Under the pieces are notes generated by a model. That model was not told the DNA's origin, did not search any database, and saw nothing but the letters and a program-made list of their open reading frames with translations. Made by a program: the position numbers and the translations under genes. Positions 3,084-30,700 of a stretch of 33,071 bases of DNA are shown here, in pieces. Origin of the DNA: a bacterium (lineage in GTDB: Bacteria > SAR324 > NAC60-12); NCBI GenBank assembly GCA_965233585.1, contig CBDDTI010000477.1:1-33071 (forward strand), written 5' to 3'. Numbering within the stretch: position 1 is the stretch's first letter; each line of letters begins with the position of its first letter.

Positions 3084-3109
3084 TTACACAAGTAGCAATG
3101 ATAAAAAGC

Positions 3110-4147
3110 ACAAATAAGATATCATGGAATTCAAATCACTGACAGAATAAGTAAGTCAAACAAAGATGTTCATTGCAGAAGACGCTTGGAAAAATTTTGA
3201 AAAAAACAACTAACTTTTTTTTGGAAAACACCATGCTCTCAAAAGATTTTCATCTTAGAAGACGCTTGGAAGTTAAATAGAAAAGCTTGGACAAAATTAT
3301 CGTTTTTCAAAACGCCACCCTCTTACAGGAGTCTCATCTTAGGAGAGGCTTGAAACAATTTTGATGGAAAAAATGGAAGAAAATCAATGTTTCTCAAAAC
3401 ACCATGCTTTCAAAAAAATCTTGTCCTAGATGTCGCTTGGAACAGTATTGACGGAAAAATTGGGAGACAAATACCGTTTTTTTTCCAAACACAAAAAAAT
3501 CATCTTAGATTTTTTTGGATTTTTCTGATAAGAAAACCTTGAGAAAACCACCTTTTTTTTCGATTCCTTTTGTTCTTCAAAATTCTCAACTTAAAAGCGT
3601 CTTGGAACAATTCTGATCGAAAAATTTGGAGGACATCACAATTTTTCAAAACACCATGCTCTGAAACGATTCTCATCTTAGAAACGCCTCGGCACAGTTC
3701 TGATGGAAAGATTGGGGGTAAATCGCCGATTTTTCAATATACCAGGCCCCTCAAAGATTCCCATCTTAGAAGTTTCTTGCAACTTTTTTTGCGACAAAAA
3801 CGATGCTCTGAAAGGATTCTTTCTCATCAAAGAAATAACTTGGAACAATTGTGATAGAAAAATTGGGATGCCATCACCGTTTTTCCAACCGTCATGTTCT
3901 TAACAGATTCTCACTTTAAAAGAAAGCAGAACATCGACACTTCAGCCTGTGTTGCAGTTGGCTCTCTTAAGAAGACTAGTTACTTATTTCCTAAGAAAAT
4001 ATAAGTTTTCGAAGCAGTGTTGATCGAAAAACTGGGAGAAAATCCTTTGATACAAGAAAAATGGGGTCAACCATCTTTTTCTTGCCGTTTACAAGATGAA
4101 GAGTTTCATGGTTTATCAAGACGCCATGTTCTTAAAAAGTTCTCATC
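3110..4147 (+). repeat. ~86-bp AT-rich satellite array (copy 1) with unique leader
   Basis: Unit tcttggaacaattttgatagaaaaattgggagaaaatcaccgtttttcaaaacaccatgctctcaaaagattctcatcttagaa; collinear with 10019-11025. Confidence 0.85.
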
Positions 4148-4149
4148 TA

Positions 4150-4825
4150 TACCTACCAACCTACGTAGGTACATACATACCACACCCAACCCACCCCACA
4201 GGGGGGCTGGGCAGCATGTGTACACCTTGCGTGATAGCTGGATTCCAGGGAGGTAGTACACCCAATCCCAGGAACCATCCCCATCGCATACATACATACG
4301 TACGTAACATACATACACATATAAATATATACAAACATACATGAACCTACGTAAGTACATACATACTACACCCAACCCACCCCACAGGGCGGGGGCGGGG
4401 AACAAAAGGTACCTTGCATGATAGTTGGATTCCAGGGAGGTAGTACACCTAATCCTAGGAAAAGCCCCGTCGCATTTATACATACATACGCACGTACGTA
4501 ACATTCATACACATATACATGCATACATACATACATAAACCTACTTAGGTACATACATACTACACCCAACCCACCCCATAGTTGGATTCCAGGAGGTAGT
4601 ACACCCAATCCGAGGAACCACCCCCCATCGAATACATACATACATACATACGTACGTAACATGCATAAAGATATGAACACATAGATACATAAATAAACCT
4701 ACGTGGTTACATACATACTACACCCAACCCATCCCATAGTTGGATTCCAGGGAAGTAGTACACCCAATCCTAGGAACGATCCCCATCGTGGGGATGAGAG
4801 GGGGTTGCAGGCCTGTACCATATTT
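4150..4825 (+). repeat. Four-unit ~160-190 bp tandem repeat with (TACA)n tracts, inserted into or truncating the satellite
   Basis: aacctacgtaggtacatacatac.acacccaacc at ~4158, 4344, 4538 and 4696; ends at the hairpin ccccatcgtgggg followed by ..gcaggcctgtaccatat. Confidence 0.85.
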
Positions 4826-4914
4826 ATATGTATATATTTTAAAAAAACATACGGAAAACATATTATGTTTAAAAACCAAAAATGCTTATATATATATATA
4901 TTTTTCAAATTTAT

Positions 4915-5513
4915 AAACACCATACCTGCCACATAATATAGAAGTCAATATTACCAAATAACATATATTCCAAATAGAACATATATTTATACTACCAAAG
5001 TCAAGATTTATCCCACCAAATAACACTAAATGTCATCAAATACCATACCTTCCATACAATTACCCGCGACGACCATGGCGCCAAACAAAACCCAAGCCGC
5101 TATCACACAAAATCAAGATCAATGCCACCAAGTAATACATAAGGTATAATAATTAACGTATTATATATAGGGTATGCGTGAGTAAATATGGGGTGGTGTG
5201 TGAATGAGTTGTGGGTAAGCATGTTGTGCGTGAGTAAATTATGTACTAGTTCTATGCGAGTAAGTTGTGTGTGTACGTGTTGCGTGTGAATGTTATGTGT
5301 GTGTATATTGTGTGCGATGGTTAAAAATATAAGTAATATCCGTGTGGGTGACAGTTGCGTGTAAGTAAGTTGTATGTATGTGAAAATTGTGCCCAAGGTG
5401 TTTGATTAATTTGAATATAAGCGTTATTTGTATAAGTCGCTGGCCAGAGGACGCAGCAGGAAGCAACCGGGAACACACAATCAAAAGCACGAACCCCGCA
5501 CAAAGATAGGGGC
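4915..5513 (-). mobile_element. Non-coding dispersed element with TG-rich core and conserved terminus
   Basis: The whole ~600 bp block is paralogous to 26510-27103; its terminus matches 3003-3083. Confidence 0.6.
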
Positions 5514-5689
5514 AAGTAGCAATTAAAAACTAGACGACGGATGGCCCAAGAGCGTAGAGGAGCAGGGTCTTCTTTTGTTAGTATGGAGACACAATTTTAC
5601 AAACAATATATGAAAGATGTGTTATAGGCAGTCGAGAAGAGGAGTAGCAAGACAAAATAGTGAGAAGTGCAAAACAATAGTTTGCATCG

Positions 5690-6225
5690 CAAACACTTTT
5701 ACACACAGACGCTTTTACACACAAAAGCTTTTTTTTACACACAGAAGCTTTTACACACAGAAGCTTTTACACAGAGACTATTACACACAAAGCTTTTACC
5801 CACAGAAGCTTTTACATATAGACGCTTTTACACACAGATGTTTTTACACACAGACGCTTTTTACACGGACACTTTTACACACACACACACACGTTTACAC
5901 ACAGACACTTTTACACACAGACCTTTTTACACACAGGAGCTGCTTTTACACACAAACGCTTTGACACACAGAAGCTTTTACACATAGACGCTTTTACACA
6001 CAGGCACTTTTACACACAAACACTTTTACATACAAACACTTTTACACACAAACACTTTTACACACAGATGCTTTTACACGCAGACGCTTGTACACACAGA
6101 AGCTTTTACACACAAACACTTTTACGCAGAAACACTTTACACACAGACGCTTTTACACACAGACGGCTTTACACACAAGCGCTTTTACACACAATCACTT
6201 GTACACACAGACGCTTTTACACAGA
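5690..6225 (+). repeat. ~19-bp minisatellite (TTTTACACACAGACGC-like)
   Basis: Dozens of ttttacacacagac/aagc units; source of the spurious THR/YTQ ORFs. Confidence 0.9.
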
Positions 6226-6291
6226 GGCCTGCCAATGTACTCACAGCGAAGTCATCGTTGTCGTGGCGACCTCAGCAATCGGACGGGGTGG

Positions 6292-7843
6292 TGTGGCGAA
6301 GTCCTATTTCCATGTGCCTCGGAACCAGCATGTATAAACATGTCATGCAAGCTATGTGCTTTGTGGCCCCCCAACCAAGGTGGTTTGCCATCTCTTGAAA
6401 AAAAGTATAAACGGGCGGACCTGGCAGGCGGTGACCGTTTCTGGGCTGGGACACGCACAGTATTACAATATGATATATGTTGTTCTTTATGGGTTTAGGG
6501 TCCTGACTCCTGACTGTGACTGGAATTGAAACTCTTATCTTAACACTCATACATCCATCTCTATATTTTAACACTCATACATCCATCTCTATATCATATC
6601 TCTAGCTCTATCTCAATAAAAAAATATATCGATGTGTCTCTTTGTGGTAGCAGCTTATCCAGGTAATCCATCCCATCCCGGGGCCCTGACTCGATGCAAA
6701 CCTAGCTGCACAGACAAACAATGCGGACACGCAAAGCATTCAAGGACTATGATTAATGACTGTGACAGATCACATTCAGCGATGTCACGGCACAACTATA
6801 TGCGCAAAAGGAATGGGCAGCTTTATTGCTCTTCTATGGAGTCTCAGACCGTTCTGCTTGACTCACGCCGATACACTATGGTGAGACAGGATGCACTATG
6901 GTGAAACTGAATGTCTCAAGCAAAGATGCGTGCATCAGCAAGTCTCAGACAGTTCTGGTTGAGCCAAAAATTATCATAGATTCAATTGGGGGGAGGTAAC
7001 AATAGATGTACCATGGCTCATGGCAAGGCCATGGTTCACCATCACCTCCATTGAAAATTATACGACCTGAGGAGGAGCCTGGACACGTATACCTTATATC
7101 GTGTGTGCATGTGTCGATGATGGCGTGGCGAAGTCCCATTTCCATGTGAACCGGAAGAAAAAGGAAATGATGTGACTCGAAACCAGCATGTATAAAGATG
7201 TCATGAGGGCTGTGTGCTTTGGGCCCCCCAACCAAGGTGGTTTGCCATCTCCCCAAAAAGAAGTATAAACCGGCGGACCTGGCAGGCCGCGAACGTTTCT
7301 GGGCTGGGACAAGCACAGTATTACAATATGATATAATGGGATGGCCCTTGTGCCCCTTTCCATGTGCTTTTTGGGTTTAGGGTCCTGACTCCTGACTGTG
7401 ACTTCAATTGAAACTCTTATCTTAACACTCATACATCCATCTCTATATATTAACACTCATACATCCAACTCTATATCATATCTCTAGCTCTATCCCAATA
7501 TAAAATATATCGATTTGTGTCTTTGTGGTAGCAGCTTATCCAGGTAATCCATCCCATCCCGGGGCCCTGACTCGATGCAAACCTAGCTGCGCAGACAAAC
7601 AATGCGGACCTGCAAAGCATTCAAGGACTATGACTAATAACTGTGACAGATCACATTCAGTGATATCCCGGCACAACTATATGCGAAAAAAGAAATGACA
7701 GGTTTATTGATCTTCGATGGAGTCTCAGACCGTTCTGTTTGACTCACGCCGATGCACTATGGTGAGACAGGATGCACTATGGTGAAACTGAATGTCTCAA
7801 GCAAAGATGCGTGCATCAAAAAATCTCAGACAGTTCTGGTTGA
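6292..7843 (+). repeat. Tandem duplication of a ~670-720 bp complex segment
   Basis: Copy 1 ~6292-6962 and copy 2 ~7125-7843, both running from gtggcgaagtcc.atttccatgtg to tctcagacagttctggttga, separated by ~160 bp of unique sequence. Confidence 0.9.
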
Positions 7844-8214
7844 CTCATGCTGATACACATCTCATTTTCAAATCGTCTTTGCGCCAAAATGATTACATGT
7901 ATGCAAATGCTTGTGCCACCGGTGAGAGGTAAACGGAAATGCTTGCGGTCACGTTTGCTCGGACAGTTCCGGTAGCAAACAAACAAACGTTCGTGCCAAC
8001 CTCAGCAAGGAAATATTATGCTAATATGTTACCCACAAACTCCACAATCCAAAAATCAGTGAATCCCAATGTAACTTCATTAATCCATTCATATTTCTTT
8101 CAGGGTACAAGTAAGCATGCCTACTGAACATGCCAAGCAAACAAGTCAGGACTGCGTCAAACGGATGACCGGAAAACAAACATGCCAAAGAAAACAAAAC
8201 ATGTAAGCAAGGCT

Positions 8215-8830
8215 GCTTTCACACACACATTGCCGCTGTCACACAGAAACACCTTTTACACAGAAACCCTTCTGCACACACACCATTTTATACAGAGACG
8301 CTTTAAGACACAAACCTTTTACACACAGACACTTTTACACACAAAAGCTTTCACACACAGAGACTTCTACACAGATGTACTTCTACACACAAATACTTTT
8401 ACACACAAACATCTTTACACAGAAACACTCTTACACACAAACCCTTTTACACAGATACACTTTCACACACAAAAGCGTTGACGCACAAACACTTTTACAC
8501 AGTTGCACTTGTACACACGAACACTTTTACACGCAAACATCTTTACACCGAAACACTCCGACACACAAACACGTTTACACACAAACACTTCTACACACAG
8601 AAGCTTTTACACACAAACACGTTTAAACAGATGCAATTTTACATACAATCACTTTTACACACAAACATCTTTACACAGAAACACTCGTACACACAAACCC
8701 GTTTACACAAAAAGACTTTTACACACAGAAGGTTTTGCACACAAGACTTCTGCACAGATGCACTTGTACACACACAAACAATTTTACACACAAACATCTT
8801 TACACAGAAACGCTCGTACACACAAACCCC
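8215..8830 (+). repeat. ~19-bp minisatellite, second block
   Basis: Same ttttacacacaaac/acagaaac unit family as 5690-6225. Confidence 0.9.
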
Positions 8831-9963: not shown

Positions 9964-10018
9964 TTTTACAGACCCCTACTATTGGAAGAACCCTGCGCTC
10001 AGACGCTCTCGGGAAAAA

Positions 10019-11425
10019 CACAAATAACATATCATGGAAATCAAATCACTGATCGAATAAGTCAGACAAATATTTTCATTGTAGAAGACGCTTGGAACAG
10101 TTTTGAAAAAAATTGGGAGAAAGCAACCGTTTTTCAAAACACCATGCTCTCAAAAGATTCTCATCTTAGAAGACGCTTGGAACAGTTTTGATAGAAAAGC
10201 TTGGACAAAATTATCGTTTTTCAAAAACACCACGCTCTTACAGGAATCTCATCTTAGGAGAGGCTTGGAACAATTTTGATGGAAAAATGGAAGAAAATCA
10301 ATGTTTCTCAAAACACCATGCTCTCAAAAAAGTCTTGTCCTAGATGTCTCTTGGAACAATCTTGACGGAAAAATTGGGAGACAAATACCGGTTTTTTTCC
10401 AAACACCAAAAAATCATCTTAGATTTTTTTTAATTTTTCTGATAAGAAAACCTTGGGGAAAACAATTCTTTTTTTTCGATTCCTTCTGTTCGTCAAAATT
10501 CTCAACTTAAAAGTGTCTTGGAACAATTCTGATCGAAAAATTTGGAGGACATCACAATTTTTCAAAAACACCATGCTCTGAAACGATTCTCATCTTAGAA
10601 ACGCCTTGGCACAGTTCTGATAGAAAAATTGGGGGTAAGTCACCGATTTTTCAATACACCATGCCCCTCAAAGATTCCCATCTTAGAAGTTTCTTACAAC
10701 AATTTTTGCGACAAAAATTTGGGAGAAGATCACCTTTCTTCAAAACACCATTGCTCTGAAAGGATTCTCATCATAGAAATTTCTTGGAACAATTGTGACA
10801 GAAAAATTGGGAGACCATCACCGTTTTTCCAAACATCATGCTCTTAAGATTCTCATTTTAAAAGTTTTCGAAGCAATTTTGATCGAAAAATTGGGAGAAA
10901 ACCACCGTTTTTCAATTCAGAATGCTCTGATAGAAGAAAATGGGGTCAGCCATCGTTTTTTTGCTGTTAAAAGATGATGAGTTTCATCTTTTATCAAGAC
11001 ACCATGTTCTTAAAAGATTCTCATCTTTGAAATTCTTGGGTCAATTTTGATAGAAAAATTGGAAGAAAAATACCGTTTGTCAAAACCATTCTTTTAAACA
11101 CCATGCTCTTAAAAGATTCTTATCTTACAGCTTCCTTGGACCAATTTTGATAGAAAAATTGCGAAAACATCACCGTTTTTCAAAACACAATGTTCTTGAA
11201 AGATTTTTTATCTAACAGGTATTGCTCTGAAAAAATTCTCAATTTTGAAATGTTTTGAAACAATTTTGATAAAAACAAATTGGGAGAAAATCACCGTTTT
11301 TCAAAACGCCATGCTCTTAAAAGATTCTTATCCTTGAAATGTCTTGGAACAATTTTGATAGAAAAATTGGGAGAAAATCATCGTTTTTCAAAACATAATG
11401 TGCTTAAGAGATTCTCCCAATTTTT
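10019..11425 (+). repeat. ~86-bp satellite array (copy 2) with the same leader as copy 1
   Basis: cttggaac anchors at 10091, 10176, 10264, 10350 and onward; leader caaataacatatcatggaaatcaaatcactga matches ~3111-3142. Confidence 0.88.
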
Positions 11426-11454
11426 CTTTTAAAAATTAGAAATTTCTGAGGTGG

Positions 11455-11890
11455 ACAAGCATGGCAAGAAATTCCATGCGTTCCAAGACGCTTTTGAGAT
11501 CAGAAATTTTTGAAGGCATGGTATTTTGAAAAATGTTCCCAGGGCATGCTGTTTTGAAAAACACTGATTTTCACCAAGTTTTTCCATCAAAATTTTCCCA
11601 AGGCACTTCTAAGATGTAAGAGCATGGTGTTTTGAGCAACAATAATTTTCTTCCAGGTTTGCTATCCAAGAGACTTCTAAGATGAGATTTTGTGAAGAGA
11701 AGGGTGTTTTGAAAAAAATGATTTGTCGATTTGTCCCAAATTTTTCTTTCTATCATATCTGTCCAAGAGACTTCAAAGATGGGAATCTTTGAAGAGCATG
11801 GTGATTTGAAAAAGGGTGGTTTCTCCCAGTTTTTTTCAATACTGTTCCAAGCGTCTTCTACAATGAAAATATTTCTCTGACTTATTCGAT
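11455..11890 (-). repeat. Inverted copy of the ~86-bp satellite including part of its leader
   Basis: The reverse complement of 11845-11892 is gatcgaataagtcagagaaatattttcattgtagaagacgcttggaac, matching 10051-10098. Confidence 0.85.
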
Positions 11891-14023
11891 CTTTGTGTGG
11901 GGTTCTTGTTTTTGATTCTGTATCCCGGGCTCCTCCGCCTTCCGCCTCCTCCCGCCGATACTCACATACCAGAACTTCACACACACTCACACACACAAAT
12001 TTAACATACAATAACTTCACACACACATACCATAACTTCGCACACACAAATTTAACATACTATAAATTCACACACACTCAGACAAACACACAACTTTGTC
12101 ACATACCATAACTTCACACACAAATTTAACATACAATAACTTCACACACACACACAGTCCCGTAGGTACGTTTGCACGGGTCCCGGGGAGGTGTCTTCGT
12201 TGGTCACCGACCCCCCCCGGGACCCCGGTGACCCCCTGCAAAATAAGAAGTTTTACATCTATTCAGATTGTACACACACACGCCCCACCGCGGCGGGGCA
12301 GATGAAATGAAAATGAAAGTGAGGTGACAATGAAAATGAAATGAACATTTCCTAACCAGGACGCGAAGAAGGGAACGCAAAAGAAGAGGGACAGAGAGAA
12401 CACCAACACGACACACCTGGCCCGGAACGGGCAAACCCTGAAAAGGCAAGGGAAAAGAAAAGCTGAGGCCGACGGGCAACGGAACAAGACTAGCGGAGGG
12501 GGGGAAGGACGGAAGCGCCTGAACCAACCTAACACGGCGAAAACCCACGCCTACCTCGGCACGCGCAGGACCCAACCTACCTAAAGAGAGGGGAACGCAG
12601 AAACACATGAGAAAGGGGGCCCATGGGGGACAGGTTAATAAAATGATGCAACCACAACGCATGCAAAAATCTTGATAAGGCTGAAAGGCCCTCGGTATTC
12701 ATTTCACAACCCTCTGGACAGCTTATGGGTTCAACCCCTGAATTACGTGCACAATTGAACCTCACCAACGACCATAAAAAGAAAGAATCACCACACCTGC
12801 AGGAATGTCCTGAAGCCTTCATGTCATGGTGAAATTGTCGAGCCCCGTACTCTCTTGGGCATCATTGAAAAAAAGGATGTTGTCGCGGCTTTCAGTAGGC
12901 TACTCTGGAAATGCAGTCACTCTGAAAAGGTGAGTCCCTGGTACAGCGGGCAGCTGTTGCAACACAACGACATCAACGAGTGAGACCAGGAAAGAAGGCC
13001 AGCAGTTCACATTACTCAGACGAATTACTAATTCAAAAGTAAATTCAGACATCGTTTTACTGTCCAGTGTTAGCCTAGAAAGGCTTTCCCTGAAAGGTTC
13101 CTGCCAACTTGACGTATGCAGCAGGAAAGACACACTTGCTCAAAAATATCTTATCGAATTACTGATGTGGAATACATCGGACGTGCAAAGAAAACTCAGT
13201 TAAACCTAACAGGAGAAATGAATATATATAAGGAACTTCCACAAAAGTTGGTGTTTTCAACATGTTTGGTGTTTTCAGATATTCCTGTAGCACGTGGGCA
13301 TGCGGCAACATGATCTTTTTAGCTGCAACAGGGACAAGTGTTCCAGATGTGTGATGGCGTTGAAAGTGTTCGAATGGGCTCATACTTTTACAGAAACTAT
13401 AGCATGTTGTGTGCTTTGAATTTTGAACATGTGTCAGTTGTAAGTTGTACTTAGACTTCAGAAAATTAAGCAACTCAAAGGAAATAGCGCAGAGATATGG
13501 CTTATCTGCGCAGAATATGAAGCACATTCAAACACATTCCTGTCGTTTCATTCCCGTCCGCAAAGAACCATCACTCCTCTATTAACAAGACAGTTGAACG
13601 TTACGCACTTTAAATATCTTAAACACTCTTGTGCTGTAATATGATTGTCCTTTTCCCTCCACAAATACTAGATCACTAACCCCTGCTGCTGCTGCTGCTG
13701 CCGCCGCTGCTGCTAAACTCAATTTGCTTTCATCCTGACATTCTTCCTTTCCAGAGGGGTTTTAACCAACCACTTCTTGGCCTCAACACCTTGCCCTGAA
13801 AAAAAATCCACCTTGCCAAGGTGCTAAACCTGATGTCTTTCTTGTTTTGAAGCTTGAATCTTCTCTCCCTTTCCCACATAATTTGATATTATATACTACA
13901 TCTGTCTACTCCAACTGGGTGACGCTGAAAAGGCACCGTCCAGAATAAGGACTTGAAGTGAGACATCATGACATCGTAGGAACAATATCTCTCCACTTTG
14001 TGGAATATCATTTAGTCCTCAAA

Positions 14024-14304: not shown

Positions 14305-14458
14305 GGAATTTCTCGCCGCCCTCCAAACAACCGGAATACCTCGCCGCCCCCCTGTTGAAAATTCCTCGCCGCCCCCCGAACAACCGGAATACCTCGCCGC
14401 CCCCCTGTTGGAAATTCCTCGCCGCCCCCGAAACAACCGGAATTCCTCGCCGCCCCCT
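14305..14458 (+). repeat. Six-unit GC-rich tandem repeat (AATTCCTCGCCGCCCCCC) with two alternating linkers
   Basis: ctcgccgccc occurs six times, alternating with ..aacaaccgg.. and ..tgttg.. linkers. Confidence 0.85.
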
Positions 14459-15148
14459 TCTCAGAAAAAAATGCGGAAAACCCCGATGGCTTACCCTTGG
14501 AATCCTTTAGTGGCCCTTCGTATGGGAGAAGCTAACTGATGGCAGCCAAGTGCCCCTAATAGTCACTTTTGGACAGTTCGCAATTTCGCAAGAGTAAATA
14601 CTGACTATGCTTAGTTTATTCTTAAATAAGTGGCTATATTCCCTGACTACTGGAAGTCTAGCATTCTCTTGGCCTAGTAAGGTTTGGAACAATTGTCATT
14701 AAAATTCAAAATGCGCAAAAGATTTCGCACTGCTGCTGCAACACCCGGCCAAAACTGAAAACACAAAAGCTTTGAACATGGAGCCCCCTAAGAACTTCTT
14801 GCCATCGATCAGAATCATATAATCAACACATTCATGGTGGCACTACTTCCATGTTGGTTTTCAACAAAAATCATATCCTAAGCCAACCAATACCGAAAAC
14901 ACCAAAAGTGTTGAAAACACTAACTTTTGTGAAAGTTCCTTATATATATATATATAAATAAATATATATATATGGGACTATGGTGGCCACCAGCTGCGAT
15001 TTAAATGCGCCCAGGTGCACCACCACAGTCCCCGCAGGTACGTTTGCACGGGTCCCGGGGAGGTGTCTTCGTTGGTCACCGATCCCCCCTGGACCCCCGG
15101 TGACCACCTGCAAAAATAGAAGTTTTACATCTATTCAGATGGTAACAG

Positions 15149-16945
15149 TTTTGCATGGCAGGCATGGCCCAATCTCACATCCACTTTCGTTTTGCATGGC
15201 AGGCGTGGCACAATCTCACAGCTGCCTTCGTTTTGCGTGGCAGGCGTGGCGCTCATGGGCCTGGGTGGCGCGCTTGGGCCGGTTTTGTCACGGATGACGC
15301 CGCGGCACTTTGCGTGGCAGGTGTGGCAAAAATCTCAAACTTAACTGTTTTGCATGGCAGGCGTGGCGCAAGCTCACATCCACCTTCGTTTTACATGGCA
15401 GACGTGGCACAATCTCACATCCGCCTTCGTTTTCGCGGCAGGCGGCGTGCCGCTCATGGGACTGGGTGGCGCGCTTGGGCCGGTTTGGTCGCGGATGACG
15501 CCGCGGCACTTTGCGTGGAAGGCGTGGCGCACATCCACCTTCGTTCTGCATGGCAGGCGTGGCACAATCTCACATCCGCCTTTGTTTTGCGTGGCAGGCG
15601 TGCCACTCATGGGACTGGGTGGCGCGCTTGGGCCGGTTTGGTCGCGGATGACGCCGGTACTTTGCGTGGCAGGCGTGGCGCACTCTCACATCCACCGTCA
15701 TTTGCATGGCAGGCGTGGCGCAATCTCACATCCGCCGTCGTTTTGCATGGCAGGCCTGGCGCAATTTCACATCCGCCTTCGTTTTGCGTGGCCGGCGTGC
15801 CGCTCATGGGGCTGGGCGGCGCGCTTGGGCCGGTTTGGTCGCGGATGACGCCGCGGCACTTTGCGTGGCAGGCATGGCACAATCTCCCATCCACCGTCGT
15901 TGTGCAGGCGTGGCGCAATCTCACATCTGCCTTCGTTTTGCGTGGCAGGCGTGGCGCTGATGGGACTGGGTGGCGCGCTTGACTCTTTGTGGCACACTCT
16001 CACATCCACCTTCGTTTTGCATGGCCGGCGTGCACAATCTCACATCCGCCTTCGTTGTGCGTGGCAGGCGTGGCACTCATGGGACTGGGTGGCGCGCTTG
16101 GGCCGGTTTGGTCGCGGATGGCACCGCGGCACTTTGCGTGGCAGGCGTGGCGCACATCCACCTTCGTTTTGCATGGCAGGCGTGGCGCAATCTCACATCT
16201 GCCTTCGTTTTGCGTGGCAGGCGTGCCACTCATGGGACTGGGTGGCGCGCTTGGGCCGGTTTGGTCGCGGATGACGCCGAGGCATTTTGCGTGGCATGCG
16301 TGGCAGGCGTGGCGCAATCTCACATCCACCTTCGTTTCACCTGGCAGGTGTGGCGCAATCTCACGACCTTCGTTTTGCGTGGCAGGCGTGGCACTCATGG
16401 GACTTGGGCCGGTTTGGTCGTGGATGACGCCGCGGCACTTTGCGTGGCAGGCGTGGCACAATCTCACATCCACCTTCGTTTTGCGTGGCAGGCGTGGCGC
16501 AATCTCACATTCACCTTCGTTTTGCGTGGCACGCGTGGCACTCATGGGACTGGGTGGCGCGCTTGGGCCGGTTTGGTCGCGGATGACGCCGCGGCACTTT
16601 GCGTGGCAGGCGTGGCGCAATCTCACATCCACCTTCGTTTCACGTGGCAGGCGTGGCGCAATCTCACGTCCGTCTTCGTTTTGCCTGGCAGCCGGTTTGG
16701 TCGTGAGTGACGCCGCGGCACTTTGCGTGGCAGGCGTGGCACCATCTCACATCCACCTTCGTTTTGCGTGGCAAACATGGCGCAATCTTTCATCCACCTT
16801 CGTTTTACGTGCAGGGGTGGCACTCATGGGACTGGGCGGCGCACTTAGACTGGTTTGGTCGCGAATGACGCCGCGGCACTTTGCGTGGCAGGCGTGACGC
16901 AATCTCACATCCACCTTCGTTTTGCGTGGCAGGTGTGGCACTTAT
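15149..16945 (+). repeat. GC-rich composite minisatellite (TTGCGTGGCAGGCGTGGCGCAATCTCACATCCACCTTCG with a GGGACTGGGTGGCGCGCTTGGGCCGG subunit)
   Basis: Many copies of a ~40-45 bp subunit interleaved with a ~85 bp subunit; explains the AWQAW/RGRRG/VAGVA ORFs in all frames. Confidence 0.92.
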
Positions 16946-20030: not shown

Positions 20031-21064
20031 CAACATTTCTTGATCCGCAATGAGTTAGGAGTAGCTTCCAGTAAGATTTCATTGGCTGCCCCACTCATGT
20101 TGTAGCAAAATCGCACGCATGAAGCCTCTTTGTGTTTGCTACTAGCTCAGGTGCCCATCCAGTGAGCTTCTTGGACGGAGGAAAGGCGCGTGTCGCATGG
20201 CCCGACAATGAGTCCACGAGTCTATGTCCTCAGGAGCAAGAGCTTTGACCCAATGTGGGAAAAAGCGTATGCAGATTCATCGCGAACCGACACCTATTTG
20301 AATGTCTATGATGCCTGTGTGTTTCTAAAATTTGTGGTTGGTTGACATATTTTGTCAGGTAATTTTTTGTATGTCATCATCGTCGGATTCCTGGCTGTAG
20401 GAAAGGCGTGGTTGTCACGTAGCACATCTCGTAGCACAGAAGATAATGGAATACCTCATTCAGCCGATTCCAGATCCGCAGTGCTCCCGGATGGAGAGCA
20501 GGTGACATTGCAGCGCTGGCCAAAAAAATGGTCTGCACTGTCGCGCACACAAATCATCTTTCATACGCCGCATCTTTCACACGCAACTTACATACATACA
20601 TACATGCATACATGCATACAAACAAAACGAAAAACCCCACAGGATGGCTCTCCTAGTAACGCCGGAAGATTAGCAGTTGATCCTGTCTATATGCCAGGTA
20701 TGATTACCAGCCACAGGGTATGCAGAAAGAGTTCGCAAAATTCGCGGCTGCGCCCGAAAGAGTGCAGAACATTACCTTGGTCAGCGGAAGTATGGTGAGC
20801 AGACCATCGCTTTGATAGCAGAGCCTGGTGGAACTCGAAGCAAGCGGAGCAACTTACTCACAAACAACCTACTCACAAACAACTTACTCTACATACAGAC
20901 ATACATACATAGATACATACATACATTACTATCTTTTCACACACTTTCTTGCTTTGTCACACACCCTCTTTCACATTCTACTTTAACACACACAACTGTT
21001 TTAACTTCTTTGAAGCTCATTATTGGAAGAAGTTGACTTGTGGGGTTATCCGTTCCTTTAATTT

Positions 21065-23760
21065 ATCAAAACGGTTCCAAGAGATTTCTAAGATAAGAAT
21101 CCTTTAAGGACATGGTTGTTTTGAAAAACGTTGATTTTCAACCACTGACTTCTGAAAAGAGAATTTTTCAAGTGCATGGTGGTTCTAGCAACAGTAATTT
21201 CCTATCAATTTTTCTATGAAAATTGTTCCAAGAAACTTTTAAGATGAGAATATTTTGAGAGCACGGTGTTTGAAAAAACGGTGATTTGCTCGCTTTTTTC
21301 CATCAAAAAAATATTCCAAGATATTTCTAAAATATTTTTTTTTAAAGTACGGGATTTTGAAAAACGATGATTTTCACCCAATTTTTCTATCAAAATTGTT
21401 CCAAAAAAATTCGACGATGAATATTTAATAAGAACATGGCCTTTTGAAAACGAATAATTTTTCCCTATTTTTTGCAAAATTGTTCCACGAAACTTCAAAA
21501 ATGAGAAAGAATTTTTTGAGAGCATGGTGTTTTGAAAAACGGTGGTTTCCGCCAATTTTTTTGAAAATTGTTCCGAAATATCTAAAGTGAGCATTTTTGA
21601 GGAGCACGGTGTTTTGAAAAACGGTGATTTTCGCCTAATTTTTCTTCCATTTTTTTGCGAGACATTTCTAAGAAATTGCTAAGATGATTTTTTTTTCAAA
21701 ATATGATAATTGAAAAACGATGCTTTTCTCGCAATTTTTAAACCAAAAATGTTCCAAAAGATTTCTAAGATAAGAATCTTTTAAGGGTATGATATTTTGA
21801 AAAATACGGATTTTCTATTTTTTTCCATAAAAATTATGTCAAAAAAATTCTAAGATATTTTTTTTTTAAAATCCATGATAATTTGAAAAATTAGGAGAGG
21901 AGAATTATCAATTTTCAAAATATCATAATCTTAAAAAATTCTTATTCGTCAAATTTATAAATAATTTTCATTTTTCAAAATACCATTTTCTCAATAAATT
22001 TAAATCTTTGAAATTTCTTGGAATAATTTTGATGGAAAAATTGGGAGAAAATCGTCATTTTTCAAAATTTCATGTTCTTAAAAAATTCTTATCTTAGAAT
22101 TGTCTCGGAAAAAAATTGTTGGAAAAATAGGTAGAAAATGATCGTTTTTCAAAATATAATGTTCTGAAAAAAATTGATCTTAGAAATTTGATATTTTTTT
22201 TGCAAAAAAATGGGGGTGAGGCCCATCTATTTTCATAAATTCGTATCTGAGAAATTTCTTAGAATTCTTTATATAAAAATTAGATAAAAATTATTATTTT
22301 TCAAAATGCCACGGCCTTAAAAAATTATTATAGAAATTTTTAAAAATAATTTTGAAATTTTTCAAAATATTATGCATTTAAAATATTCTTATCTCGGATT
22401 TTTTTTTGCAATAATCTGAATAGAAAAATTAAAATAAAACTATTATTTTTCAAAAAATCATGCTTTTTAAAAAAATACCTCAAAAATTTCTCGGCAGAAT
22501 TTTAATCAATAAATTAAAAATTATTATTTTTCAAAATACCATGCTATTAATAGATTTTCATCGTGGAAATTTCTTGGAATAATTTTAATATAAAATATTG
22601 GGAAACAATTATTATTTTTCAAATTATTATGTCCCTCAAAAATTCTTAGCTTAGAAATTTCTTGTAACAATTTTTCAAAAAAAATTGGGAGGAATTTACC
22701 ATTTTTTTACTTATCATATTTTTAAAATAAATTCATCTTAGAAATTTCTTCGAACAATTTAATTAAAAAAAATTAGGTTAAAATCATTATTTTTCAAAAT
22801 ACCATGCTCTTAAAAAATTCTTATTTTAGAAATATTTTGGAAGGATTTTGAAAGAAAAATTGGACGAAAAATACGAATTTCAAAATATTATATTCTTAAA
22901 TGATTTTTATCTTAGAAATATTTTGGAATAAATTTAATTTAAAAAAATGGGAAAAATTACCATTGATCGAAATATAATGCTCTTAAAAAATCCTTATCCT
23001 AGAAATTTCTTGCATAATTTTGATAAAAAAAATTAATCAAAATTATTCTTTTTCAAAACATCATGATATCATCTTAAAATACATTTGGAATAATTTTAAT
23101 AAAAAATAAAAATCAATTTAAAAAATTGGATTTTTTTTTTCAAAATATTATGCTTAAAAAAAATCTGGCTCTCCAATTATTGTCATCTTTGAAATTTCTT
23201 GGAAAAAAACTATTAGAAAAAAATAATCAAAATTATTAAATTTTTAAAATATTTAATTCAAATAAATTTATTCCCGAAATTTCTTGGAAAAAAAAAACCT
23301 TAATATTTCTTATTTTAGAAATATCTTCGAATTCGAATCTTTTTAATAATAAAATTTGGAGAAAATTATTTTTTTAAATTTACATGCTCTTAAAAAAAAT
23401 ATAGATATTTTTTGGAACAATTTTGACAAAAAAATATCGGAACCATTTTTAATAAAAAAAAATGCGGACGGAACAAAATTGAATTCAATATTATTTTGGA
23501 AATATTTTAATAATTTTAATAAAAATATCGGAGAAAAACATAATTAAAAATTATATTTTTTAATAATTGTTATTTTCGAATTTTTTCTTTAACTTTTAAT
23601 TTTTTAAAAAAAAATATATGATTCTTTTTCAAAGCTCCATTGTCTTGAAAATTTTGATTCTAAAATTATCTTGGAAAAAAATTAATACAATAATAAGGAA
23701 GAAATCACCGTTTCTCAAATTATTATGTTTTTTAAATATTTTTATCTTAGGAATACAAAG
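21065..23760. repeat. ~86-bp satellite, minus orientation to ~21880 then plus orientation, progressively AT-eroded
   Basis: aaattgttccaagaa..agcatggtgttttgaaaaacggtg units first, then tttcttggaataattttgatggaaaaattgggagaaaatc units from ~22015 with increasing loss of G and C. Confidence 0.8.
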
Positions 23761-23819
23761 TGGAAAATACAAAGAATATCGATGTCAATTTTTCTGCAAA
23801 TATCCCTGTCAGGAATTCA

Positions 23820-24237
23820 ATGTATAAAATAATTAATTTTATTCCTCCCAATAATTTACAACCAAAAAAAATCATTAATAATTTTTTTCCATAAATAATA
23901 TTTTTATATTTAAATTAATATAATTCAAATATTTTATTTAAATTAATTACTTAATAATTTTTATTAAAAAAATATTAATATATTTATATTATTCCCAAAT
24001 TTCATATAATCAAAATTTCCAATCGAAAACTTAATAATTACCAATATATTATTTTTTTCCAATAAATAAAAATAATATATATAAAAATTTAGATAAATTA
24101 TATAAAACTAATATAATATAAAAAATATATATAATATATATAAAAAAATATATTTAAAAAAATAATATATTAAAATTATATAAAAAATATTATTTAAATA
24201 AATTAAATATAATTATATTAAATTAAATTTATATATA
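23820..24237. other. Near-pure A/T tract
   Basis: Very few G or C; abrupt return to normal composition at ~24238. Confidence 0.85.
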
Positions 24238-24279
24238 TGAGTTGTGTTTTAAATGTCTTGCATGGCGGCACCAAACAAG

Positions 24280-25180
24280 GAAAAATTTACGCTGCTGCTT
24301 ACGCATTGCTTAAGCGCACACAAGTTTTACTTACGCACGTTATAGTACCTTGCGCAGACCTCACGCGGACAATTTTTAGCACGTCACCACAGTTTCGACT
24401 TATGCGCAGCAACTTTTACATGCAAGAATCGAGGCAGTGATTGGCAAAATCAAGCAGTGGACGATGAAGATGTGGAAGAAGAGGAAGAAGATGATGAAGA
24501 AGTACCACCAGCAGAAGCTCGCCAAGCACGAAGCTGACGACGTTTTTTGACAGCACCCTTGCTGAGAGCACGGGCATGACTGGAAAGTTTCTCTTTGGGC
24601 GGCATGGGCAACTACTGACAAAAGCACCTTTGGCTTACGCGCAGCTTACGCGACACTTACGCGGTCCTTATGCGGATGTCAGGAAACAACTACGCAAAAC
24701 ACCCACTGAAGATAACCAATGTTCCTTCAAGAAAAGGCATTCCAATGCATAGGTTGCCTGTCACTCTCTGCATCTGCCCCTTTCTGATATGCTGAATTCT
24801 TAAGTACATGTAGGTCCCTGTAAACCTTGAACAACGAATTTTTTCAATTTATAAATTGTCCATATCGACAGAAATGGGGAAAACCATCCATACTCTATAA
24901 GACCAGGTAACCTGAAATTGATACCAAAGCCATACAGGTGTGTTGAACTGAAAAACAGGAGGGCTACCGTGGCCCTAGGAAAATCAAAAACCCGTCCGGT
25001 TATGTCAGGTTAGGATACATCATATATACCACTACTTAAAACTTCATATTAAAACCGTTGAAAATGAGCTTACGCCATCCTTACGCCAGCAATATTGGTA
25101 AAAAAAATGCTTACGCAAGCTTACGCGCATCAGTATTTTGCTTACATAACAGGCCCTTACAAGGATCCCAATACTAAATA
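24280..25180. repeat. Element with clustered CTTACGC motifs at both ends and the centre
   Basis: ttacgc clusters at 24287-24410, 24634-24695 and 25068-25160. Confidence 0.55.
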
Positions 25181-25419
25181 TAAACACGGAAGTTTAAAAC
25201 ACGGCTCATATCATAATTACCAGTAGTACCGCACAAGGCGATGGCGGAAGTTTCAAAAATAGGAAACCTATAGGAGAAGTTGGTTGTTGTGAATCAGGGA
25301 TGGCAGAGCGAAGCCACTGATTGACCGAAAGGTGGTTGGAATTGTGTTTGCCGGAATGGTTGCAATGGTTGCAGTGGTCACCTCACCCAGAACTGCTGGA
25401 TGTAGTGTGATGTATTGCA

Positions 25420-25755
25420 ACTGGAGTTGTAGTTGTAGCGTAGTGGAGTTGTATGTGGTGTAATGTAATTAGTGTAGTGTAGTTGCAGTTATATAGTTGT
25501 AGTTGTAGTTGTTTTGTAGTTGTTGTAGTTGTAGTTGTTGTGTGGTTGTAGTTGTTGTGTAGTGTAATTGTAGTAGTAGTAGTTGTTGTTGTTGTAGTTG
25601 TAGTTGTTGTTGTTGCTGTTGTTGTAGTTGTAGTTATAGTTGTTGTTGTTGCTGTTGTTGTTGTAGCTGTAGTTGTTGTAGTTGTAGTTCTAGTTGTAGT
25701 TGTTGTGTAGTTGTAGTTGTTGTTGCTGTTGTTGTTGTTGCTGTTGTTGTTGTCG
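25420..25755. repeat. Compound (GTT/GTA/GCT)n microsatellite
   Basis: Direct reading. Confidence 0.92.
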
Positions 25756-25844
25756 TCGAAGTTAGGGTAGTTAAGTTAGTGAAGTTAGTTAAGTTAATTA
25801 ATGTCTACTTTTTCGACATCTTCACGTCAAAAAAGGCTCAAAAC

Positions 25845-26262
25845 CCTCAGTTTTTTACACTTTTGACTTCGAAATGTGCTTCGCGCCACAACGGCGTGCA
25901 CTTTTTCGACATCTGAACCTCCAAAAGTAGTCCGAGACCGTCAGTTTTTAATACTTTTGACTTGGAAACGTGCTTCGCGCCACAACGGCGTGAACTTTTT
26001 CGATATCTAAACCTCCAAAAGTAGTCCGACATTGGTGTGTTTTGTACATTTTGACTTCAAAATATGCTTCGTGCCACAACGGCGTACGCTTTTTCGACAT
26101 CGCAACTTCCAAAAGTGGTCCGACCATGGTGTATTTTGTACATTTTAACTTCAAAATATGCTTCGCGCCACAACGGCGTATACTTTTTCGACATCTCAAC
26201 TTCCAAAAGTAGTCCGCTCCTCTAGTGTTTTGTTCATTTTAACTTGGAAATGTGCTTCGACG
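25845..26262. repeat. ~94-bp tandem repeat, about 4.5 units
   Basis: tttt(g/a)actt.(g/a)aa..tgcttcgcgccacaacggcgt at ~25861, 25956, 26049, 26143 and 26237 (last unit partial). Confidence 0.9.
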
Positions 26263-26499
26263 TACACTTTTCATGTCTCATCTAGCCAGCTAGCTCCGCA
26301 CCCGCCGCTTTAACGAGCCTACTTTTCGACCCTCCGGAGTTACAAATCATTGGAAAAACACAGTACATCACAACGTTCCTATTTTTTCGCGCACCCACCT
26401 CTTCTTTCTTCTAATCTTATCTCTTCTAACTCTTCTCATCTCTGCTTTTCAACTATCCATATTGTCGAAAATTTCACTTCTAAACTTCTTTCAATTATT

Positions 26500-27185
26500 T
26501 AAAAAAATATTAATATCACCAAAAATAATATTTTTTAAATATAATAAATATTTATATTACCAAATTCAAAATTATTTCACCAAACAACACTAAATCTCAT
26601 CAAATACCATACCTCCCATACAATTACCCGCGACATTCATAGCGCCAAACCAAAACTATCCCACAAAATCAAAATTAATACCATCAAAAAATATATAATA
26701 TACAAAATATAAATTACATATAAATAAATATAAATTATGTAAATATATAATTAAAAATAAATAAATTATATATATAATATATGTTTATATATTATGTTTA
26801 TATATTATGTAAAATAAATAAATTCTATAAATAAAATATATATAGGTATATTATACCTAAATATATTATATTTAAATATAATATACCTATATATTATATT
26901 TAAATAAATTATATATAAGTCTTATATTATGTATAATAGTTATATATATATATATATATAAATAAATATTTTATAAAAAAAATATTTATACATATATTAT
27001 ATATATACAAATAATTATATAAATTGTCGATCAAAAGACGCAATAGGAAACAAGCGAAAATATACAATCAAAAAGAATAACCCCCGCACAAATATATAAG
27101 GAATTAAATATAAGTATCAATCAAAAAAGAAACACAAATAATAAAACATCCTGGAATCCAAATCACTGCTCCAATAAATCAGACC
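26500..27185. repeat. AT-eroded paralogue of 4915-5530 plus the satellite leader
   Basis: caccaaacaacactaaatctcatcaaataccatacctcccatacaattacccgcgac (26578-26633) aligns to 5014-5070; 27025-27183 aligns to 3003-3160. Confidence 0.85.
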
Positions 27186-27762
27186 ACAGGGTTTCTGCAT
27201 CCGTCCGCAATCCGGGCCACTGCCCCAACAGTGGGGTGAATGTTGTCAGCACCGTCCAACAGTTACACAACAGCAGGCAAATGGTACACACAAAGTTTCT
27301 GCTCTACGCAACTGCCCTATGCTGTCCAGGTCACTGTTCCACCACTTGGAACCATGTTTTGTGTGGAGTTGTTGTGGCTGCTCCAACAGGTGGACCAATG
27401 CTGTAAAGCAGGCATCTGGTGCGCTTAAAGCTTCCGCAGTCCAGGCCATTGCTCCCACAGTTGGACCAATGTTGTCAGCAGGCAACCGATGCATACATAC
27501 CTTCGAAGAAGGGGGGGAAGAAGCCAGCGGAATATTAGCAGGCTCTTAGAAATTCTTTTCTGATAGTTCTCATCCTGCTTTGCTCTTCAAAACGATACTG
27601 GGAATGCGACGAAACAATTTTCATACATTTATTGATACTTTTTTCCGGGATTTCTGCGCGTGCCATTTTCAAAGACTAATTAAATGAATTGCTCTTGCAG
27701 GGACAAATCTTGAACATCTGCAAACCCGTGAGCTGGCCAGTGGCAACTACTAGTCATCACGC

Positions 27763-30700
27763 TCAATCATCGTCGTCGTCGTCGTCATAGCCGCACACCT
27801 GAAACCAAGATGCGGCGCGATAACGATGGGATCCAAGGTGCTCCAAGATCTATTAGAACGTCCGAGAAACTGCAAGTTTGTAGTCCCCTGACGCAGATGA
27901 ATCAGACTCCTGATCATCAGGCGTCGGACCGCACCAGGTAGCCAAAAAATTGCGCCAACATGGGCTCCAGATAGCAAAAGATATTTTTTGGCAGACTTCT
28001 CGCGGCCACCCCCTGCAGCGACACCAGCATACAAGCTTCATAGCGCACACCGCACTCTGAGAGCAGCACCCTGTAGCAGCACCCAAGTTGACCTCCACAG
28101 CGCATATGCCACTGTAAGCATCACTCTGTTGCAGCGGCACCCGCATGCCCGCTCCAAAGCATACACAGCAGCACCATCCAGCAGCGCCCTGCACTGGCAC
28201 CAGCATGCCCGTTCCAATACGTTGCGCCACTCTGACAGCAGCACCCTCAAGCAGCACCGCGCAGTGCACCAGCATACCCCAAAGCGCAAACACTACTCTG
28301 AGAGCAGCGCCCTCCTGCAGCGGCGTGCACCGCTCTAGCAGCAGCACCCTTAAGCAGCACCCTGCAGCGGTACCGTGCCGCGGCACACCAACGCGCGCGG
28401 ACAGCACTTGGAGAGCAGGGCAACTTGCAAAGCAGCACCTGTCAGTGGCAGCAGCACCTTCACGCAGCTTGCAGCGGCCTTCCTGCAGTGGTGCCAGCAT
28501 GCTGCAACGCGCGCACACCACTTTGACAGCAGCACCCTCAAGCAGCACCTTGCAGCTGCACCTCGCAGCGGCACCAGCATGCCTGCTCCAAAGCGCATAC
28601 ACCTCTGATAGCAGCACCCTCAAGCAGCACCCTGCAGCGGGTACCCTGCAGCGGCACCAGCATGCCCGCCCCCAAACACAGACATGCAACTCCTCCTATA
28701 CTTGAAGTAAGAAACACCAATAACTTCGCTATCTAGAGAACCAGGGCTGGATTTGCTGTGCCTGACGCCAACGCTTTAGCGAAGCAAAAAGATTTTCCCT
28801 GAACTTCAATTGGGTGAAAAAGTGTGCTGGTGATCGTGTTTTCGTGATTCCGCGGCTCCTCCAGTTCCTCTTGGCTGATGATCTTGCCGAAAGTCGTGTT
28901 CATGTCGACTTTCATGCGAGTTTCCACCTGAAATGCGCCACCAAAGAGCCACAACACAGGCACAGCGCAGGAACATGAGAATACGATAGAGAACATTACG
29001 ACCATGGGCTGAGTCTTCAAGCTGGAGGTGCTTCGGGAAGGAACACGACGGTCAACATCAGCAGCATGAACCTGCACAAGCTGAAAACGATAGAAATATC
29101 TAGCTCCACAAAAGAAAACTTGCTGACAACTGCTTTTGTCTGGTGTGTCTCGTGCCCAATGCTTGACAGCCACCATCCATAATCCAAATATGCGACCACA
29201 GGCCATGGAATTGGTGGGTGCGGATATTCGTAGCCTCAGACCGAAGATCGGCTTTGAGCCAACGGTGTCACTTGCAGGCCCATCTGTTCCATTTCAGCGC
29301 AAACCGCCTTTGCTGCACAGAGAACTTTTGTCTGTGATTGCCAGTAAATGACTCCGAACATTGGTGATCCATTTCGATAGAAAACTAAGATTTCTTGTGA
29401 ACTTCCCATCACCGAAGTCACGGAACACAAACTGTCACTCCGCCTCTCTGTGGCCTTCGAACTCTGATATCTAAAAGCTCTGCAATGAATGCAACTGATG
29501 TGCGGATGGAAGGAATCTGGTCCGGTGTCAACTCCTCGGACCCCAAAACACCGGCGTTGCCGGAAAGCTTGAAGAAAACGCAGCGTTGAATTAACGGCGT
29601 GGTTCCGGACATGTTTGGGCGAATTTGTTCCGAGCTGCTGGATGGAAACTCAAAACGTCAATTGTTCCGACCACTGGCAGCATGAATGTGTGAAATGTGA
29701 AGAGCCCAAACCAGACTTTCGTCCCAAACCTCAGTTCAGCTCCGCTGACAGTGTTCGTGACAATTCCATTGCTTGCTGACCTAAAAATCACACACTGTCT
29801 CACTTGGACCAGACAGAGATTCTTGCAACAGAGTAGCTCCAACTCAGGTGCTTCAATGACGTTGCCAGCCAGCATCATCCACATGATGAACCTGAGAGCT
29901 TCAGCCAAATACAACATCAGCATTGTGAAACACAACGCCTCTGCTGGGTCCTTTTTGCAGCAACAATTGCGTTGAGTGGCAGAGTCGCCATGAAAAGGAA
30001 GAGGTGGATCTGCACAGCGGAGCACGCTTCAACAGACTTCAAAACTTGAGGCCCAGGGGTAAGTGACGAAAGCTAGCTTGGCAGGGGGCTTGGCATGAAA
30101 ACACCGAGTAGCCTCACAAACTCATCTGTATCAAAGGATATTATGTCCAAGACCAGGCTTTGAATGTCTTGGTTTGGGATGAACGGGACACATTGAAGGT
30201 GGATCAATGTCACATAAAGAGAGCAAAATTTTGTATCACACGTGTACATAATGAGGAAACTCCCGCTCAGTAGTGTGGTGGTCACTAAAGAGGAAGAAGA
30301 TTCAAGGGTCCACCTTCAGCATCGGAGTGGACCTTGAAAGGCTTAGAGGCTTAGAAGTTGCAAGAAAAGAAGAGGTTGAAAGCGTGGCTAGGTAGATGTC
30401 ATGAGGGCAAAAAGAGGAAGCATGCCTGTGCAATTGCTCCGGAAGATCTTTGCAAACTCACCTGCATGAAGGAATACTATGTCCAAGAAAAGCTTGCCAT
30501 TGTGAGAACTAGCCCTAAACTACATGACAGATGTCAAAGACCTAATTAAAATTTGGAATACTCATGTTTGGATCATACAATTCTGCAGGACGGCCTCTTG
30601 GAAATTGCTATGGTTTTACTGGGTTACCTCGTCGTGTCCGATGCTGGATTTAAATGAACAAATCTTGATGCTCAGAAATATGTGCGGAGCATCTGGAAAG

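Follow-up and report, generated by a model that had tools for sequence, protein, structure and literature searches.

Directional C>T/G>A hypermutation of repeat copies in a coral-derived contig, and its possible origin in AID/APOBEC-type cytosine deamination

Why are some copies of a repeat composed almost entirely of A and T, while other copies on the same contig are of ordinary composition? This question is raised by contig CBDDTI010000477.1 (33,071 nt; C477), one of the 747 contigs of the 12.0-Mb assembly GCA_965233585.1, which was analysed over its entire length, here called the window, and which is a mosaic of satellites and other repeats in whose 22 open frames no recognisable protein family or domain was found. 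A first-pass annotation of this DNA had described G>A and C>T changes in a repeat copy that ends near position 27185, and had proposed a process similar to the repeat-induced point mutation (RIP) of fungi, acting in an apparently non-fungal genome. Here we report that the assembly does contain repeat copies with directional and local C>T/G>A hypermutation, and that this is wider than that description had it, since it is found in the same copy (patch 2), in a second patch of the window (patch 1) and on other contigs; the RIP-like mechanism, instead, does not agree with the neighbour, index and copy data given below. Our tentative explanation, which we hold at slightly less than even weight, is that the patches are coral repeat copies whose chromosomal cytosines were deaminated in place, most likely by a deaminase of the AID/APOBEC type acting on cores that are often single-stranded.

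Patch 2 (26507-27183) represents a composite repeat unit that also has GC-normal copies at 4944-5530, 2990-3141 and 9990-10075, and its homology is detected by ordinary BLAST in two matches, one of 223 nt (77% identity, E 4e-42) and one of 160 nt (74%, E 9e-19). The reference unit and the parts of the patch are the following:

2990-5530, plus strand: GC-normal reference of the whole unit, comprising header, 87-bp array, 194/158-bp repeats, AT-leaning stretch, TG core and header.
26507-26722, plus strand: mutated copy of 4944-5169 (the longer of the two BLAST matches; G>A 9/16, C>T 11/49).
26723-27020, plus strand: TA-rich, low-complexity core, matching the TG-rich 5170-5430 (G>A 58/83, C>T 12/18 by MAFFT, with uncertain alignment).
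27009-27183, plus strand: mutated header, to be compared with 2990-3141, 5425-5529 and 9990-10075 (four-way alignment; G>A 13/27, C>T 8/26).

Substitutions were counted from the MAFFT alignment of 4940-5535, taken as reference, with 26505-27175. From the GC-normal to the A+T copy, G>A occurs at 80/126 and C>T at 31/93 sites, against only 1/205 for A>G and 9/159 for T>C. The alignment of the TG core with the TA stretch is of low complexity and less certain; when this core is removed the same direction is seen, with G>A 22/43, C>T 19/75, A>G 0/129 and T>C 5/55. Transversions are rarer (G>T 21, C>A 9) and many of them lie within the uncertainly aligned core. The directional counts thus bear out the first-pass statement that the paralogues differ mostly by G>A and C>T, and its further remark, that the TG-rich core at 5170-5430 had become nearly pure TA, is in line with the 7 C and 6 G (13 C/G) found among the 200 bases at 26801-27000. 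The two strings on which the comparison had been based are present in the window, but they span 27026-27069, not reaching 27103, and 3004-3050.

The second and larger patch, absent from the first-pass annotation, is located at 21050-24240 and is a decayed array of the 87-bp satellite, in which the GC content falls to 0.15. GC-normal arrays of the same satellite are found at 3140-3930 and 10080-11860. The relevant features are:

21050-21850, minus strand: outer part of patch 1, inverted 87-bp units, mildly mutated, GC ~0.29 (nhmmer units; in 9 units C>T 16/93, G>A 14/92).
21880-23750, plus strand: main part of patch 1, direct 87-bp units, strongly mutated, GC 0.15-0.25 (11 units compared with the consensus).
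23751-24240, no strand assigned: extreme A+T end of patch 1, GC 0.03-0.15, delimited by composition.
10050-11890, no strand assigned: second GC-normal 87-bp array, a foldback whose ends are inverted (10051-10133 and 11809-11891 form an inverted repeat and are 93% complementary; unit orientation).

A profile of the satellite was built from normal units (nhmmer), and every unit was scored against the consensus of 25 GC-normal units. In the 11 direct-orientation units of the patch C>T affects 48/114 and G>A 42/119 sites, compared with 27/296 and 28/279 in the 25 normal units, and the match to the consensus at C/G positions falls from 0.87/0.83 in normal units to 0.49/0.51. The A/T positions, on the other hand, match the consensus equally well (0.88-0.90) in patch and normal units, so that the excess is specific to C and G, concerns both strands and has accumulated at no greater overall age. 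It is also an excess of transitions, as C>T (48) and G>A (42) far outnumber the transversions (five each of C>A, C>G and G>C, and 11 G>T). Regarding the arrangement of these arrays, the foldback at 10050-11890 consists of direct units followed by inverted units, and patch 1 is arranged as its mirror image.

Which copies changed, and when? The answer comes from the 2.27-kb insertion (24241-26506) that lies between the two patches and is made up of two elements:

24241-25206, no strand assigned: GC-normal element X, which begins exactly at the end of patch 1 and has a relative on contig C260 (24241-24366 and 25109-25200 match C260:23676-23882).
25207-26506, plus strand: multi-copy element TE-94, recognised from its repeat copies, with a GTT/AGTTGT microsatellite, a 94-bp array at 25807-26259 and a tail ending at 26506.

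Element X, which runs on into TE-94, differs from its relative by symmetric changes (C>T 5/33, G>A 7/26, T>C 6/41, A>G 5/25), and this holds for the first 126 bases next to patch 1. TE-94 is about 1.3-1.5 kb long and is represented by 26 copies in the assembly (e.g., on contigs C636, C524 and C547) and by more than 100 in fetched metagenome loci; its end is sharply defined, every copy having a different flank after ...CTTCCTTCG. In the last ~450 bases of the window copy G>A and C>T are in excess: scored over 25880-26439 against the consensus of 11 other TE-94 copies, this copy has 21 G>A and 13 C>T against one A>G and 10 T>C (34 GC>AT vs. 11 AT>GC), while ordinary copies are near-symmetric (314 GC>AT vs. 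269 AT>GC). When the consensus G/C sites are binned by 80 bp, 5-17% of them are changed up to 26359 and 36% (12/33) in 26360-26439. The erosion that had been reported for the 94-bp array is therefore present as a GC>AT excess, but it consists of a modest elevation with a late rise and not of a steady gradient from unit to unit. At the junction between TE-94 and the repeat unit (26506) the mutation density is alike on the two sides (12/33 in 26360-26439 and 21/68 in 26509-26705), and it then climbs to ~60% in the core and header of patch 2. This continuity indicates that the process acted after the insertion of TE-94 and that it follows position rather than repeat identity; moreover, the fact that the junction of two unrelated elements is ignored counts against both the editing of a transposition intermediate and a strict repeat-by-repeat targeting.

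The same margin gives the direction of the change. In fact, because 11 independent TE-94 insertions carry G/C there, and ordinary copies are near-symmetric, the A+T state is derived, at least at the TE-94 margin of patch 2. The opposite polarity, in which the A+T copies would be ancestral and the others would have gained G/C through biased gene conversion or through A-to-I editing of an RNA intermediate, has some room in the patch cores, where two or three GC-normal copies are set against one A+T copy and parsimony alone is indecisive. We consider it highly improbable, given the 11 independent copies at the margin, the GC content of 3-15% with graded edges, which looks derived, and the neighbour effect described below, whose strongest component would become a 3' T beside the edited A, which is not a known preference of ADAR.

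Both abrupt edges are structural breakpoints, one being the insertion at 24241-26506 and the other the end of homology to the repeat unit at 27183. The abrupt stop near 27185 noticed in the first-pass annotation is real as a jump in GC content (from ~0.25 to 0.53 at ~27185), but it coincides with the end of homology and may not be a property of the mutational process. Beyond 27183 the GC-normal copies continue into the 87-bp array, whereas the window continues into unrelated sequence, for which, from 27186 on, the rest of the assembly offers no relative apart from one 91-nt match at its far end. Patches 1 and 2 may formerly have been one island, split by the insertion, although no homology is detectable between the extreme end of patch 1 and the unit upstream of 4944, a transition-tolerant local alignment of 23751-24240 to 3900-4950 being no better than shuffles (z -0.1), and no progenitor of this end was found in this way. 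If there was a single island, heavy mutation took place before the insertion and more of it afterward, since the TE-94 tail is affected, and this would point to a lasting local cause.

Two observations concern TE-94 itself. In a second, independent assembly A+T-rich DNA is often found directly past the end of this element, the first 100 bases having GC ≤0.22 in 11/79 flanks; on this evidence of composition, an insertion preference for A+T-rich targets is the more likely explanation. The element was also considered as a Helitron, and this assignment was dropped: one end would fit the 5' TC beside a host A, and the other fails the CTRR rule.

In which organism did this happen? The assembly contains bacterial 16S genes and is rated as a bacterium, 92% complete and 2% contaminated, with three contigs of 0.6-1.1 Mb; the remainder is mostly short contigs with few long open frames, and 6.5 Mb, about half of the 12 Mb, sits on contigs that fall below the open-frame cut-off. 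Genes of Gypsy and BEL/Pao retrotransposons and TPR-CHAT genes were found on the short contigs; to our knowledge, BEL/Pao elements occur in animals only. The region 20500-28500 is partly present in 20 public runs from 7 studies, 14 of which are labelled as coral metagenome, and a deaminase gene on contig C574 has its nearest named homologues in the stony coral Stylophora pistillata, with 59-61% identity. On the basis of the retrotransposons, the coral runs and the deaminase homologues, the host of the window is a stony coral, whose repeat contigs have been binned with a bacterium, and the earlier impression of a non-fungal genome was therefore correct. As a side observation, marker-based contamination scores overlook the coral repeats (retrotransposons, satellites and TPR-CHAT genes) that make up much of that half. 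The window also includes a GC-rich block (15148-16940, GC 0.59-0.64) of 41-bp and 153-bp tandem repeats (GCAGGCGTGGCGCAATCTCACATCC...), in contrast with the A+T islands 5 kb away.

What distinguishes the cytosines that changed? Sequence context was studied in a set based on ordinary alignments, which includes the satellite, patch 2 without its core and two mutated TE-94 copies. CpG cytosines are changed in 34/130 cases and other sites in 195/648 (Fisher p 0.40), in agreement with the first-pass statement that the changes are not confined to CpG, and the observed/expected ratio of CpG is at least 1.3 in most patch windows. CpG is thus no target, and where it is spared, this is no more than a local feature. 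A general sparing of CpG, suggested by the surviving CpGs listed in the first-pass annotation, was considered and rejected, as it is seen only on contigs C451 and C114, and the C114 pair comes from a search that failed its control (see below).

The neighbour on the 5' side, instead, has a clear effect. At position -1 the changed fraction is 69/162 after A, 38/137 after G, 79/285 after T and 30/157 after C (p 6e-5), while in the same pooled set no effect of the 3' neighbour (+1) was found (p 0.44). The five pairs without a reversed-query match of at least 200 nt give a similar order by hand summation, with 79/107 after A, 124/205 after T, 69/125 after G and 44/122 after C (chi-square ~35, 3 df), and A exceeds C in all five of them; two of these pairs are the window's own, and the two data sets overlap. 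The background is different: in 88 ordinary TE-94 tails C>T occurs at 5.3% after T, 3.8% after C, 2.9% after A and 2.0% after G, and at 4.4% before G.

These data bear directly on the hypothesis of a true RIP-like defence, directed by homology against duplicated DNA, as the first-pass annotation had suggested. Such a defence would account for the facts that every verified target is a repeat, in many cases a tandem one, that patch 2 stops exactly at the end of homology (27183) and that C>T and G>A occur on both strands. RIP has a 3'-neighbour preference, CpA being far above the other dinucleotides in Neurospora, and its thresholds are TpA/ApT ≥0.89 and (CpA+TpG)/(ApC+GpT) ≤1.03; no CpA preference is found here, and the two indices are 0.73 and 2.66 in patch 1 and 0.93 and 1.22 in patch 2. 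The second index rises from 1.5-1.7 in the normal arrays to 2.66 in patch 1, in keeping with a loss of ApC and GpT, whereas RIP would lower it. Furthermore, the partner copies at 2990-5530 and 10050-11890 are GC-normal, only one arm of an inverted repeat on contig C451 is mutated, about 21 of the 26 TE-94 copies in the assembly are unmutated (four or five of the 26 have a GC>AT excess) although the family is larger still, and the mutation crosses the junction into an unrelated element. Finally, the host is an animal, and RID-type enzymes are, as far as we know, fungal. A RIP-like process is, in our opinion, improbable.

Is the phenomenon limited to the window? To define A+T patches in the whole assembly, windows of 200 bases with GC below 22% were merged into stretches of at least 400 bases, resulting in 72 patches of ~63 kb in total. 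An ordinary BLAST survey of these patches was noisy, with 49/72 lacking a GC-normal partner. Four contigs gave the following counts against a GC-normal partner, whose direction is partly built in since the survey demanded a GC-richer partner:

C422: C>T 25 and G>A 85, against T>C 4 and A>G 7.
C114: C>T 26 and G>A 61, against T>C 3 and A>G 7.
C547: C>T 17 and G>A 51, against T>C 4 and A>G 5.
C616: C>T 57 and G>A 105, against T>C 19 and A>G 20.

By eye, in the MAFFT alignment of C422 with contig C108, the signature is present both in a 12-bp satellite and in the non-repetitive flank, and in the inverted repeat of C451, made of complex sequence (5964-6268 against 8005-8309), only one arm is hypermutated. 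The stretches with most changes in the survey, C615:6742-8022 and 14331-15720, were rejected: they belong to an intrinsically A+T-rich 21-bp satellite (GC ~0.18), with blocks 96% alike and hardly any CpG, and are not hypermutated. A search based on purine/pyrimidine recoding, aimed at progenitors distinguished by transitions only, was also discarded. It found GC-richer partners for 53/72 patches (31 of at least 200 nt), but the control with reversed, non-complemented sequence found them for 46/72 (29 of at least 200 nt), which means that the search is dominated by periodic low-complexity matches, and its genome-wide counts were abandoned; pairs of the type 'C>T 87/93', a pooled context table and 13/16 matches in a second assembly are likewise not relied on. 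The pairs retained are those backed by ordinary alignment or having no reversed matches of at least 200 nt.

Since the contig belongs to a mis-binned metagenome assembly, it should be asked whether the A+T versions exist in the animal at all or are an artefact of sequencing, base-calling, polishing or assembly. In addition, a 32-mer of the mutated header was not found by exact-pattern scans of two public contig collections (metagenome and genome), nor was the normal header in a scan of the same kind on genome contigs. However, normal flanks in the same contig, graded edges, the coexistence of C>T and G>A, and the context bias do not correspond to any known type of error. Within a single study, possibly that of the source sample, three runs contain 0.57-0.68 of the words sampled from 20500-28500, about half of which are patch, without distinction of which words are matched, and A+T stretches beside the TE-94 end recur in the second assembly, as judged by composition. 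An artefact appears to us even less probable than RIP, and the changes would be heritable.

Which enzyme could be responsible? Two tandem, intact open frames (3654-5024 and 6409-7677; 457 and 423 aa) are located on the minus strand of C574, a 7.7-kb contig of this assembly. Both match APOBEC4_like (PF18774; E 7e-18 and 2e-25, respectively), and in each of them the HxE and PC...C motifs are conserved. These frames have a long insert between the cysteines of the PC...C motif, which is a trait of a cnidarian-algal clade (PMC5889660), and 179 relatives at E ≤1e-10, Stylophora pistillata again providing the nearest named ones. AID/APOBEC-like genes are known from cnidarians, sea urchins and brachiopods (PMC5889660, PMC5956068), and within this broader family cytidine deaminase activity has been reported for members from sea urchins and brachiopods (PMC5956068). 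In the mechanism that we favour, a polynucleotide cytidine deaminase of AID/APOBEC type, from a family that is expanded in corals, would deaminate most cytosines on both strands in the chromosome, the resulting U being read as T, and A and T would be spared. Its target would be the frequently single-stranded DNA around a core of TA/TG low-complexity sequence or tandem repeats that unwinds readily, and this single-strandedness would determine where mutation occurs. The process would recur over evolutionary time, so that the damage would peak at the core and fade across 0.5-3 kb.

The main rival of this enzymatic explanation is a regional decay without enzyme, in which TA-rich or tandem DNA that breathes, forms hairpins or replicates late as heterochromatin would deaminate faster, and the island would grow outward. 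The patches have low-complexity or tandem-repeat DNA at their centre and grow weaker away from it, both strands are affected without strand-coordinated runs, and the apparent mutation before and after the insertion at 24241-26506 suggests a lasting local property, all of which decay would explain. Nevertheless, helix stability should involve both neighbours and only the 5' side has an effect; the conversion of 50-65% or more of C/G without additional change at A/T demands a very large excess in rate; and the 87-bp satellite also occurs in GC-normal arrays that escaped mutation, including one that is likewise a foldback. Regional decay is therefore, in our view, unlikely, though more probable than a RIP-like process.

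Several observations weigh against deamination by an AID/APOBEC-type enzyme. CpG behaves unevenly, being changed at 17/37 sites in the satellite but at 1/12 in C451, where other sites are changed at 39/75. The 5'-A bias derives from few independent sites, as C/G occupies only 25 positions of the satellite consensus and both data sets contain the window's pairs; the two TE-94 copies show an enriched +1 A class (24/65, against 0.13-0.17 in the others, p 0.003); and at -2 neither the A/T preference of AID nor any clear rule was found. The C>T and G>A changes did not form detectable strand-coordinated runs: in a permutation test of 20 pairs, most of which derive from the purine/pyrimidine search with the failed control, no pair showed a deficit of strand switches at P<0.05. 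The two types of change are interspersed, and some patches are strand-biased overall, e.g., C422 (C>T 12/53, G>A 68/86). We know of no activity or target preference for this clade of deaminases, and the genes on C574 encode no more than candidate enzymes for the patch loci.

If these islands were due to DNA editing, their meaning would go beyond one contig. It is possible, though we hold it with less conviction than deamination at the patches themselves, that corals drive selected repeat and satellite loci of their own, heritably and repeatedly, into A+T islands by means of expanded AID/APOBEC-like deaminases, as an independent animal counterpart of RIP. A survey describes 19 invertebrate genomes as devoid of such editing footprints (PMC4866542), and no genomic target of the cnidarian enzymes is described in the relevant parts of PMC5889660 and PMC5956068. 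In searches of the literature, judged by titles and abstracts, no description of RIP-like or deaminase-type hypermutation in corals was found. In that case DNA editing would, for the first time in an invertebrate, have a genomic footprint, and the coral islands would represent a counterpart of RIP with independent origin and a different chemistry of target choice. A saturating and local C>T footprint that depends on the 5' neighbour would offer a testable substrate for the coral deaminases, and would point to a mutational genome defence, or to a heterochromatin route, in animals. From a practical point of view, A+T islands of this kind would confuse both the annotation of repeats and the binning of metagenomes in coral samples.

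How, then, do the patches compare with the systems already known? The RIP of Neurospora crassa and other fungi, which depends on RID or DIM-2, resembles them in the dense C>T/G>A changes on both strands, in the concentration of transitions in repeats, which are turned into A+T relics, and in the damage that fades into the neighbouring DNA. In contrast to RIP, the coral patches lack the 3'-neighbour (CpA) preference and the index values, leave other copies of the same repeats GC-normal, occur in a coral and not in a fungal host with a RID/Masc1-type cytosine methyltransferase that acts in the sexual cycle (a search for RID was not made, and host DNA accounts for only about half of the 12-Mb bin), and follow position rather than the identity of the element. 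The decay of 5-methylcytosine at CpG in animal repeats has in common with the patches the build-up of C>T and G>A in silenced repeats, but the excess at CpG that it entails is not seen here, and in C451 CpG is largely spared. The somatic hypermutation by AID and the editing or kataegis by APOBEC enzymes of vertebrates share with the patches the clustered deamination of cytosines over ~1-3 kb, with A and T untouched. Also in AID the 5' neighbours set the targets, WRC being favoured and SYC disfavoured, and in the patches A is favoured and C is lowest at -1, with G and T in between, on a small evidence base and with no clear rule at -2; the strand-coordinated clusters of the vertebrate systems do not appear. 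Unlike the vertebrate footprints, which concern immune genes, retroelement cDNA or tumour DNA, that of the coral is fixed in a cnidarian assembly, at satellites and transposon junctions, and reaches a conversion near saturation without the A/T preference at -2. The family itself is represented in the organism by the two intact APOBEC4_like frames with their catalytic motifs, which are predicted to encode enzymes.

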